Positions 37,375 to 39,908 of a DNA stretch of 64,000 bases are shown here, in pieces; position 1 is the first letter of the stretch; each line of letters opens with the position of its first letter. The stretch is from Marinobacterium sp. (GTDB lineage Bacteria; Pseudomonadota; Gammaproteobacteria; Pseudomonadales; Balneatricaceae): positions 10,944-74,943 of the forward strand of contig DATHZN010000083.1 of assembly GCA_035458585.1 (NCBI GenBank). Reading direction: 5' to 3'. The notes under the pieces are model-generated. The model saw only the letters and a list, made by a program, of their open reading frames with translations, made no database searches and had not been told where the DNA came from. A program made the translations under genes and the position numbers.

Positions 37375-37689
37375 TTATCTGTTTGGTTGGGCATCGGACG
37401 GCATAATCACTGGGCTTCCCCAAAACATTTCGACTTCAGGCATGCCCTCCCAACGGTACTTGCAGAGCTTTAGATCCGTGATCTCACATGCCAGTTGTTC
37501 GATGGCGACTCCAGTGGGTAGTTTTTGACACCCCCGTTGCGGTTGGCTGCCAACCCCATATAAATTTGCGCTCAGTAGCTGGCGGTAGAGCGCTTCTGAT
37601 TCGCACACCCAGTGTTGACTCTCGGTTGCCAGAGTTATATTCGGACTGATCAATAACATGGAGAAGAGGTAGTTAATTGGCTGTTTCAT
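37375..37689 (-). CDS. Small hypothetical exported protein
   Basis: 104-aa ORF filling the gap, signal-like N-terminus, four Cys. Confidence 0.6.
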   Translation of the reverse strand: MKQPINYLFSMLLISPNITLATESQHWVCESEALYRQLLSANLYGVGSQPQRGCQKLPTGVAIEQLACEITDLKLCKYRWEGMPEVEMFWGSPVIMPSDAQPNR

Positions 37690-37756
37690 CAGTTAAGTCT
37701 GGAGCAAAGGGGTTGAGATTCGTACAATCACGCCTTAATTGCGGAGGATTATACTG

Positions 37757-38113
37757 ATGAACGAAGCGCTATACATCTTTCTTGCTGCTGGAGCAGTCTC
37801 CATGGCGGCTGCACTGAGCGCAAGCGCCCTGAATAAGTTGTCTGAAGAGACGCGTCCAGCTTGGATGAACTCAAAGAATGCTCAGATGTCGGTAGTCTTG
37901 GGAGGTAACTTTGCAGCACTCAGCTTAGTGGGCGCCATGGCTTACGGTTTTCAAACACTGCACTGGTCAATTCCACTCTCCTGCATGTTTATCACCTTCC
38001 CAATTGTCCAGCTGTTAGTTTTGCAGCGTATTTTGGGCGACGCTCGAACGTTGATGTTAACCCTTCCATTAACCCTGGTGGCCGATATTTACCTCTATAT
38101 AAACTGGCCTTAG
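37757..38113 (+). CDS. Hypothetical membrane protein
   Basis: About four hydrophobic segments; GGAGG RBS; terminator follows. Confidence 0.8.
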   Translation: MNEALYIFLAAGAVSMAAALSASALNKLSEETRPAWMNSKNAQMSVVLGGNFAALSLVGAMAYGFQTLHWSIPLSCMFITFPIVQLLVLQRILGDARTLMLTLPLTLVADIYLYINWP

Positions 38114-38131
38114 GTGGTTAGAGATTAAATT

Positions 38132-38157
38132 GGGAGCCGATGGCTCCTTTTTTATTT
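38132..38157 (+). terminator. Intrinsic terminator
   Basis: GGAGCC-gat-GGCTCC followed by TTTTTTATTT. Confidence 0.75.
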
Positions 38158-38190
38158 CTGTTATCTCTAAAAAACGCATGGCTAGCGCCA

Positions 38191-38318
38191 AAATATCAAG
38201 AATAAATATTGATATTTATTTTATTATTCAAGATCTAATTTTGATTTATTCGTGTTTATTCAAAATGGAGTTTTGATAAATCGCTTTTTATTCAAATTTA
38301 AATATTGATTTAAAATAA
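38191..38318. repeat. Four TCAA-N9-TTGA palindromes in exact 32-bp phase
   Basis: TCAA starts at 38196, 38228, 38260 and 38292, each followed by 9 nt and then TTGAT. Confidence 0.85.
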
Positions 38319-38615
38319 AACTATCATTGAAAAATATAATGTTCACCTGCGTCTCAATAGTCATGAGGTTTTGCCTATAAGTTACTTTAACTAATTGTAT
38401 TTAAACGGTTTGTAACTCATGATTTAGTGTTTATTCAGTCGTATTTAATAAAACAAGATTGTTGATTTTATGATCAGTGATAGTGGATACTTGTGCTAAT
38501 ATCAAATAACAGAAAGGCGCGAGTTTCGTTGTAATGACCGTTAAGAGTCAAACAGCTCACTCTAAGAGTGCCTTTAAGCGGAAAAAATCGCTAACAATGG
38601 ACGGGTTTTAAGCAG

Positions 38616-39908
38616 TTGGCAGATGCAAATATGATAGTAGCGCTTGACATAGGTACCTCTAAGGTCGTCTGTATGGTGGCCGAAGTGGGTGCCAATGGCA
38701 GTGTCGATGTTGTCGGTGTGGGTTCTCATCCGTCACGCGGTCTAAAGCGCGGTGTCGTCGTTAATATCGAGTCTACCGTGCAGTCAATTCAGCGGGCTGT
38801 TGAAGCTGCAGAATTGATGGCTGGGTGTAAGGTTCACTCTGTGACCGTAGGTATATCCGGTAGCCACATCGACAGCCATAACTCTCACGGTATCGTTGCA
38901 TTGCAGAGCCGTGAAGTTACCGAGTCCGATCTAGAGCGCGTCATTGAGGCGGCACAGGCGATCGCTATTCCCGCTGACCAACGCATACTTCATATCCTTC
39001 CGCAGGAGTACCTGATAGACAATCAGGAGGGCATTAAAGAGCCCCGCGGTATGTCAGGAGTTCGTCTTGAGGCCAAGGTACATCTGGTCACAGGTGCGAC
39101 CAATGCAATACAGAATATTGAAAAGTGTGTTCGTCGCTGCGGTCTGGAAGTTGATGCGGTGGTGTTGGAACAGCTCGCCTCGGGTTACGCCGTCCTGACG
39201 GACGACGAGAAAGACCTCGGTGTCTGTATGGTGGATATAGGGGGAGGTACCACCGATATTGCGGTATTTACCCAGGGTGCGATTCGTCATACAGCTGTCA
39301 TTCCTGTGGCGGGTGATCAGGTAAGCAACGACATAGCGATGGCGTTGCGCACGCCCATGCAGCACGCTGAACAGATCAAGATGAAATACGCCTGTGCTCT
39401 TGCACAGCTGGCGCGCCCCGACGAGACCATTAAGGTTCCAAGTGTTGGCGACCGCCCGCCGCGTGATCTATCGCGTCAGGCGCTTGCGGAAGTGGTTGAG
39501 CCCCGTTACGAAGAGCTATTTACGCTGGTCCAAGCAGAGCTCCGTCGGAGTGGCTTTGAGGATTTGGTTGCAGCGGGTCTGGTATTGACGGGTGGTACAT
39601 CGAAGATGGAGGGAGCGGTTGAACTGGCGGAGGAGATATTCCATATGCCTGTGAGGCTGGCGCGCCCCACCGGGGTGACCGGTGTTGACGACCTCCTCAA
39701 GAACCCGATTTATGCAACGGCGATTGGTCTCTTACTCTATTCAGCGGATAACGAGCTAGTGCAGTCGGTGGATACACAATCAATAGACGATATGAATCTG
39801 ACTGCAGATGAGCGCTCAGAGCATCGGACAGAACAAAAAGAGTCCCGTGATAAACAGCTGGGGAGCTGGGTATCGCGATTTAAGACCTGGGTTCAGGGTA
39901 ATTTCTGA
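38616..39908 (+). CDS. ftsA: Cell division protein FtsA
   Basis: LDIGTSKV, GMSGVRLE, DIGGGTTD, LTGGTSK, YATAIGLL; TTG start. Confidence 0.97.
   Translation: MADANMIVALDIGTSKVVCMVAEVGANGSVDVVGVGSHPSRGLKRGVVVNIESTVQSIQRAVEAAELMAGCKVHSVTVGISGSHIDSHNSHGIVALQSREVTESDLERVIEAAQAIAIPADQRILHILPQEYLIDNQEGIKEPRGMSGVRLEAKVHLVTGATNAIQNIEKCVRRCGLEVDAVVLEQLASGYAVLTDDEKDLGVCMVDIGGGTTDIAVFTQGAIRHTAVIPVAGDQVSNDIAMALRTPMQHAEQIKMKYACALAQLARPDETIKVPSVGDRPPRDLSRQALAEVVEPRYEELFTLVQAELRRSGFEDLVAAGLVLTGGTSKMEGAVELAEEIFHMPVRLARPTGVTGVDDLLKNPIYATAIGLLLYSADNELVQSVDTQSIDDMNLTADERSEHRTEQKESRDKQLGSWVSRFKTWVQGNF

Follow-up and report, generated by a model that had tools for sequence, protein, structure and literature searches.

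Why would a bacterium keep four short palindromes at exact 32-bp intervals upstream of a pair of cell-division genes? The question is raised by the window, the whole stretch of 64,000 nucleotides analysed here, in which four TCAA-N9-TTGA boxes precede ftsA and ftsZ. The scores below were obtained with a PWM built from 247 boxes of relatives, and no strand is assigned to the boxes.

38196..38212: box 1, TCAAGAATAAATATTGA, 26.0 bits
38228..38244: box 2, TCAAGATCTAATTTTGA, 28.3 bits
38260..38276: box 3, TCAAAATGGAGTTTTGA, 25.7 bits
38292..38308: box 4 (proximal), TCAAATTTAAATATTGA, 27.0 bits

The exact 32-bp phase described in the earlier note was confirmed both by reading the sequence and by Tandem Repeats Finder (TRF), which reports a period of 32 bp at the array. 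Box 1 has, as had been noticed, palindromic arms that are perfect over 9 bp (AAATATCAA / TTGATATTT), and the start of box 4 lies 339 bp from the ATG of ftsA. The spacer that holds the array (38114-38630) is indeed very AT-rich, with 21–28% GC versus about 52% in the flanks. The TCAA-N9-TTGA pattern matches four times in the 64-kb window, where 1.22 matches are expected, and all four lie within 113 bp of each other and in phase, with no others elsewhere. The stricter pattern TTCAA-N9-TTGAT has seven matches in the 2.9-Mb assembly, three of them inside the array. When the same 2.9-Mb genome was scanned with the PWM, the array boxes scored 25.7–28.3 bits and were the only sites above 21 bits. The weaker copies proposed at 38417 and 38449 did not hold up, scoring 4.3 and 4.0 bits and having no counterpart in the closest relatives.

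The runner-up site, GTCAAAATGCTATTTTGAA (20.7 bits), is found on contig C44 (27728-27748) of the window's own genome (G000), between divergent maf (septum-formation Maf-like) and yceD-rpmF-plsX-fab genes. It is probably a chance match; an equivalent was not seen in other genomes. We also considered extra single boxes (this site, G018:1247479, and others) as a clue to autoregulation and rejected them, their contexts being unshared and their number at the control level.

The first look at conservation covered the regions 5' of ftsA in 40 relatives and found arrays in sister species as well as in other genera. Two boxes 31–32 bp apart are present in 93 of the 151 sampled Nitrincolaceae genomes, belonging to 11 of the 16 sampled genera, and the reversed pattern, used as a control, has no match in any of the 151 genomes. 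The earlier note had named beforehand a lack of conservation in relatives as grounds for refutation; both the boxes and their spacing turned out to be conserved. A search for three phased boxes in 185,579 species genomes (one each) returned 92 stretches. Among the 80 of these 92 that were listed, 74 are of Nitrincolaceae type, including a genuine array at a locus labelled Pontibacter, and the other six consist of identical units repeated in tandem and are unrelated in sequence. The listed carriers are Nitrincola, Amphritea, Aliamphritea, Neptuniibacter, Neptunomonas, Marinobacterium, Pontibacterium, Osedax symbionts, and Oceanospirillales MAGs. Judged from the 80 of 92 stretches listed, the array thus seems essentially absent outside Nitrincolaceae among the 185,579 species genomes.

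Each genome carries one array of three to six boxes. Exact boxes number three in 20, four in 32, and five in 12 of 64 loci, and six-box arrays occur in Aliamphritea. Adjacent boxes are spaced by 32 bp (142 cases) or 31 bp (39 cases), with a mean of 31.8 bp; the sole other spacing is 64 bp (three cases), with one box decayed in between. In all loci with enough flank, the proximal box lies 295–582 bp 5' of the ftsA start codon (median 326). Off-array box matches in five complete relatives stay at the level of the reversed-pattern control, and the regulon appears to consist of this single locus.

What kind of element are the boxes? The consensus of the 247 boxes is aTCAAwATTwAATwTTGAt, preceded by an A-tract and followed by a T-tract. 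Half-sites had been described as invariant and linkers as diverged, and this part of the claim stood, whereas the freely variable N9 interior did not, since position 5 is A in 244 and position 11 is T in 234 of the 247 boxes. Among three sister species with FtsA proteins 95–96% identical, the half-sites are identical at 32 of 32 positions, compared with 53–61% identity for the box interiors and 63–70% for the linkers. At all variable pairs of symmetric positions, Watson-Crick combinations are about as frequent as the base frequencies predict. The half-sites thus vary independently without covariation, which points to a site for a symmetric protein dimer rather than a hairpin. Accordingly, a structured RNA or hairpin repeat was rejected, as compensatory arm changes were not seen and an Rfam search gave no match for the array.

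More broadly, the array might be a chance or selfish repeat, or a hairpin in RNA or DNA, having no protein partner at all. AT-rich spacers readily give short palindromes, and outside the family the same regular expression finds plain tandem repeats. The array, however, is conserved in 11 genera with invariant half-sites and diverged linkers, its arms do not covary, and neither Rfam nor the reversed control returned a match. Conservation, non-covariation, and half-site identity effectively refute this reading, to which we assign a negligible probability.

The second question concerns the target of the array. The features around it in the window are as follows.

37739..38113, plus strand: upstream gene for a small membrane protein, no Pfam or NCBIfam match
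38132..38157, plus strand: intrinsic terminator, a 7-bp stem (38132-38148) with five GC pairs, then a T-run
38631..39908, plus strand: ftsA (Pfam FtsA, SHS2_FTSA), the only tblastn match in the window's own genome
39973..41166, plus strand: array-linked ftsZ (Pfam Tubulin, FtsZ_C)

The terminator had already been recognised upstream of the array, and its stem and T-run were confirmed. Being the terminator of the upstream gene, it would insulate the array from read-through. Homologues of the upstream gene lie 5' of the array in 37 related loci, making it the conserved left neighbour. Genes 3' of ftsAZ include no conserved neighbours among the related loci. On the minus strand, 37375-37689 encodes a 104-aa protein of no known family with conserved cysteines and an apparent N-terminal signal peptide, and this protein is found near the locus in seven related loci.

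Most Nitrincolaceae genera have two ftsA-ftsZ pairs. The pair at the end of the dcw cluster (ddl-ftsQ-ftsA-ftsZ) lacks the array (L016, L017, L019, L162, L164), and the stand-alone pair carries it (e.g., G010 at 1.478 Mb, G021 at 2.876 Mb, and L165). The array is thus linked exclusively to one of the two operons. In the window's genus, of which G001 is a complete genome, the dcw cluster ends ddl-ftsQ-ftsZ'-lpxC-secA, without ftsA. The ftsZ' copy shares 61–65% identity with the array-linked ftsZ, and its C-terminal peptide (…LDVPTYARR) is diverged.

Contig C104:2-1725 of the window's own genome; L160 (G001:C1:1223000-1231000): dcw locus of ftsZ', adjoining lpxC

The ftsAZ operon of the window is therefore the second of two family-wide ftsAZ operons and did not simply become detached from dcw. 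Because the dcw cluster of the window's genus lacks ftsA, the array-linked operon holds the only ftsA found there.

The association between array and operon has also been lost in places. Genus g12 has kept the second ftsAZ copy without any box (L166), and most of genus g5 has a decayed array (L163). In three genomes, G003-G005, the array is absent and a gene of AsnC/Lrp type (153 aa) is inserted between the AT-rich spacer and ftsA, 35 bp 5' of the latter (L012:480-1453 in G005; also L013 and L014). The spacers of these genomes contain several GCAAA-WWW-TTTGC palindromes, such as AACGCAAATATTTTGCGTT. From its sequence, this arrangement looks like a swap of the regulatory input at ftsA. Close to the start of ftsA, we observed a four-codon upstream ORF in the window (38598-38612, ATG GAC GGG TTT TAA) and, in other genera, a conserved in-frame ATG 18–21 nt 5' of the aligned ftsA start, which would add six or seven residues to FtsA.

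The region between the last box and ftsA was aligned across genera. Distances are counted from the start of the last box.

+132 to +135, other genera: GGCAAA-NN-TTTGCC palindrome
+164 to +167, several genera: TTGnTGATTTT block
+231 to +237, other genera: sigma-54-type TGG-N9-TGC (-24/-12) element
38459..38502, plus strand, in the window: promoter block, 167 bp after box 4

The TTGnTGATTTT block may be read as the -35 region of a candidate sigma-70 promoter because a GATAMT/TAATAT -10 comes 17–18 nt later, with the hexamers assigned by alignment. In the window, the block comprises a -35 TTGATT (38462-38467), an 18-nt spacer, and a -10 GATACT (38486-38491), together with an overlapping extended -10 TGcTAATAT (38494-38502). 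The sigma-54-type element (e.g., TGGCCTGTAAATTGCT) lies at +231-237 in 31 of 64 loci and at +224-225 in two more, amounting to 33 of 64, and is spread over Nitrincola, Marinobacterium, Amphritea, and Aliamphritea. Two Marinobacterium loci, L084 and L142, have each of the three elements 10–11 bp nearer to the last box, these bases having been lost between the array and the palindrome. This deletion equals one helical turn, and distances kept constant modulo the helical repeat are the mark of a stereospecific nucleoprotein complex. An intact array without the GGCAAA palindrome and the sigma-54 element is found in the window's genus, Neptuniibacter, and the Osedax-symbiont group. The array is kept where the sigma-54 element is missing, so it can be separated from that module. 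The GGCAAA palindrome and the sigma-54-type promoter were seen to co-vary (e.g., L082, L068, L110, L116), and the palindrome core of L110, GCAAACGTTTGC, is PurR/LacI-like.

Public metatranscriptome contigs cover ftsA, and those of two independent studies (X2 and X4) end exactly at 38463, inside the TTGTTGATTTT block. We regard these ends as a weak and ambiguous hint of a start site. The RNA data are contigs rather than reads and hence map no start site, and position 38463 lies upstream of the TSS predicted by the window promoter, which counts against that assignment. In an oligo-dT run, contigs span the terminator and the array (37795-38405).

Taken together, the four boxes are probably a cooperative operator array of a putative dimeric protein that controls the paralogous ftsA-ftsZ operon. 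Each 17-bp palindrome would most likely hold a sequence-specific DNA-binding protein as a symmetric dimer. A spacing of 31/32 bp corresponds to three helical turns, which would place the dimers on one face of the DNA, where they could join into a higher-order complex of three to six dimers. Held at a fixed distance that preserves the helical phase 5' of the non-dcw ftsAZ promoters, such a complex might control their transcription. The boxes would thereby form an operator or enhancer-like array, whose effect may be activation or repression. Although we infer protein binding and oligomerisation, the earlier proposal of a cooperative array for a regulator of ftsAZ gains support from the conservation and from the known motifs tested, which do not fit. 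The array centres are about 200–300 bp from the putative start sites, which counts against this mechanism; such a distance is far for a classical activator and would need looping or wrapping.

The array might instead have a non-transcriptional role, either as a centromere-like or positioning site that tethers the ftsAZ locus or as a site where a nucleoid protein nucleates. A single locus per genome would suit such a role, and so would the AT-tract flanks and one-face phasing, features that some centromere arrays share. A positioning site, however, would not explain why the place of the array is fixed relative to promoter elements with indels that preserve the helical turn, why it accompanies one gene pair only, or why it was lost where another regulator gene was inserted, and no par-type gene is located near the locus. 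The alternative of nucleoid or septum positioning raised in the earlier note found no support, and we keep it as a rival of very low probability.

If the boxes are an operator array, which protein would bind them? The geometry brings to mind the Lrp/AsnC (feast/famine) family. An octamer encoded elsewhere could wrap the array, with its four dimers on four in-phase sites, and couple ftsAZ to the amino-acid supply. The Lrp layout at pap and ilvIH has AT-rich-centred palindromes with three-turn phasing and three to six sites, and the array agrees with the phased AT-rich-centred palindromes about 30–32 bp apart expected of this family (31/32 bp, three to six boxes). In G003-G005, moreover, the AsnC-type gene and the GCAAA-WWW-TTTGC palindromes take the place of the array 5' of ftsA. 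However, the box consensus TCAAwATTwAATwTTGA (17 bp, with other outer bases) fits neither the E. coli Lrp consensus YAGHAWATTWTDCTR, compared by eye, nor the 13-bp abcdeWWWedcba pattern. The window's own genome has five AsnC/Lrp-family genes. The presumed Lrp orthologue (C3, 165 aa) has an HTH that looks, by eye, close to that of E. coli Lrp; its preference should therefore be for the E. coli consensus, from which the box departs. No AsnC-family gene is adjacent to the array or tracks it within the genus: array-bearing G001 has two full-length AsnC-family genes, and counterparts, judged by frame length and score, are present in array-less G003 and G005. A global regulator would also be expected to have more sites, and none were found in the window's own genome or in five complete relatives. 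We consider binding by an Lrp/AsnC-type octamer unlikely.

The sigma-54-type element raises the possibility that the array is the UAS of a bEBP that activates the sigma-54 promoter of ftsAZ through a DNA loop. A good -24/-12 element is found at a fixed distance in 33 of the 64 loci and in four genera, NtrC-type enhancers are also 17-bp palindromes three turns apart, and the window's own genome encodes rpoN and four bEBPs (NtrC, LuxO-like, PAS-type, and degenerate GlrR-like). But the window's genus, Neptuniibacter, and the Osedax-symbiont group carry the array without a -24/-12 element. The GGCAAA-NN-TTTGCC palindromes, furthermore, are better UAS candidates because they co-vary with the sigma-54 promoter and precede it by about 100 bp, as a UAS usually does. 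Three full-length bEBPs of matching size are common to G001, which has the array, and to G003 and G005, which lack it, and the distribution of the GlrR-like bEBP among genomes does not follow that of the array. This enhancer reading is, in our estimation, improbable.

The GlrR-like protein is encoded on the minus strand of contig C121 of the window's own genome (12675-14072; L171:1003-2400). Its receiver and sigma-54-interaction domains have weak scores, it reaches 116 bits compared with about 230 for its paralogues, and no more than a few species of the genus have a close orthologue. By its sequence, it is possibly a degenerate bEBP. It was rejected as the array binder after a comparison of 151 genomes, since G001 has the array but not this protein, and genus g12 has the protein but not the array. 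The remaining bEBPs and AsnC-family genes were likewise rejected, since their occurrence does not tell apart the genomes of the genus with and without the array.

Other candidates from the genomes also failed. The neighbourhood has no conserved transcription-factor gene near the array. The conserved upstream families (an O-methyltransferase, a 119-aa membrane protein, RmuC, and a 213-aa protein) were dismissed as regulators, none being DNA-binding, and the 213-aa protein, of no known function, is absent from the window's own genome. Smaller ORF clusters near the loci look like spurious antisense frames or secreted proteins. A screen for the XRE family yielded a 306–314-aa HTH_3 protein in G001 and G006 that is not found in G003-G005. 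We discarded it as the binder: its sequence reads as having a kinase-like domain, and its neighbours look like a ferredoxin-reductase-type protein and a thioesterase, so we read it as a putative regulator of a catabolic pathway, possibly of benzoyl-CoA type.

We compared the boxes with further known motifs. The earlier statement that the box does not match FNR or IHF sites was borne out for FNR by order and spacing and for IHF by a missing TTR. FNR and CRP sites follow TTGAT-N4-ATCAA or TGTGA-N6-TCACA, whereas the order here is the opposite, TCAA-N9-TTGA, with TTGA-N14/15-TCAA between boxes. The WATCAA of the IHF site (WATCAANNNNTTR) is found in most boxes, but the TTR is missing 4 nt on, both in the consensus and in the window boxes. 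Against the Fis consensus (G at -7, C at +7, and an AT-rich 15-bp core), the box has C at -7 and G at +7. As for iterons and oriC, the units here are palindromic, and their neighbours are ftsA and the genes for a membrane protein, rmuC, and a methyltransferase rather than rep or dnaA. The NrdR palindrome (16 bp, acaCwAtATaTwGtgt) differs from the ftsA boxes, which sit before ftsA and not before RNR genes. The window's own genome does have canonical NrdR boxes, CTCACTATATTGGGGG and ACACTAGATGTTGTGT, 32 bp apart on contig C79 and 172-125 bp 5' of nrdA (class I ribonucleotide reductase; start at C79:5529, minus strand).

We propose tentatively, as a possibility with somewhat less than an even chance, that the array is the operator of an undescribed regulator that gathers three to six dimers on one DNA face, switches a second core-divisome operon (ftsA2-ftsZ2), and is restricted to or specialised in Nitrincolaceae, representing either a new family or a new specificity. 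Full-text literature searches returned no paper on the box motif or on ftsA/ftsZ in Nitrincolaceae genera, and we know of no description of duplicated ftsAZ operons in gammaproteobacteria. How the transcription of ftsA-ftsZ is controlled is poorly known except in a few model organisms. Here, a second ftsAZ operon is found across a whole family, and its control region is unusually elaborate and rigid, consisting of the array, a second palindrome, and sigma-70 and sigma-54 promoters. Because the operon carries the only ftsA of the window's genus, apparently a lineage with small genomes, the gene under the control of the array there is probably essential. If the proposal is true, cell division in bloom-forming marine bacteria has a transcriptional circuit of its own, which most genera combine with a sigma-54 module. 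Cultured relatives are available in Neptuniibacter, Marinobacterium, Amphritea, and Nitrincola.

By analogy, the array might work like the phased multi-dimer complexes of Lrp, NrdR, or NtrC, even though it fails the sequence-level tests of each. The Lrp arrays of E. coli pap, ilvIH, and gltBDF likewise have AT-rich-centred palindromes about three turns apart and far upstream, and Lrp/AsnC arrays in E. coli depend on helical phase and are bound cooperatively by an oligomer; unlike them, the array described here has a 17-bp box with TCAA/TTGA ends and one target locus per genome. NrdR boxes are also palindromes 31–32 bp apart that are occupied by an oligomer of dimers, but NrdR sites come in pairs, whereas the ftsA arrays have three to six boxes. 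With NtrC-type enhancers such as that of glnAp2, the array shares 17-bp palindromes three turns apart, a presumed action at a distance, and, in many genera, a sigma-54 promoter; it differs in persisting without that promoter and in lying 230–330 bp upstream, beyond a better UAS candidate. The control of ftsQAZ in E. coli by SdiA, RcsB, gearbox promoters, and MraZ is comparable as a dedicated transcriptional input into ftsA-ftsZ, although the motif and architecture found here are different and the likely target is a paralogous ftsAZ operon outside dcw.
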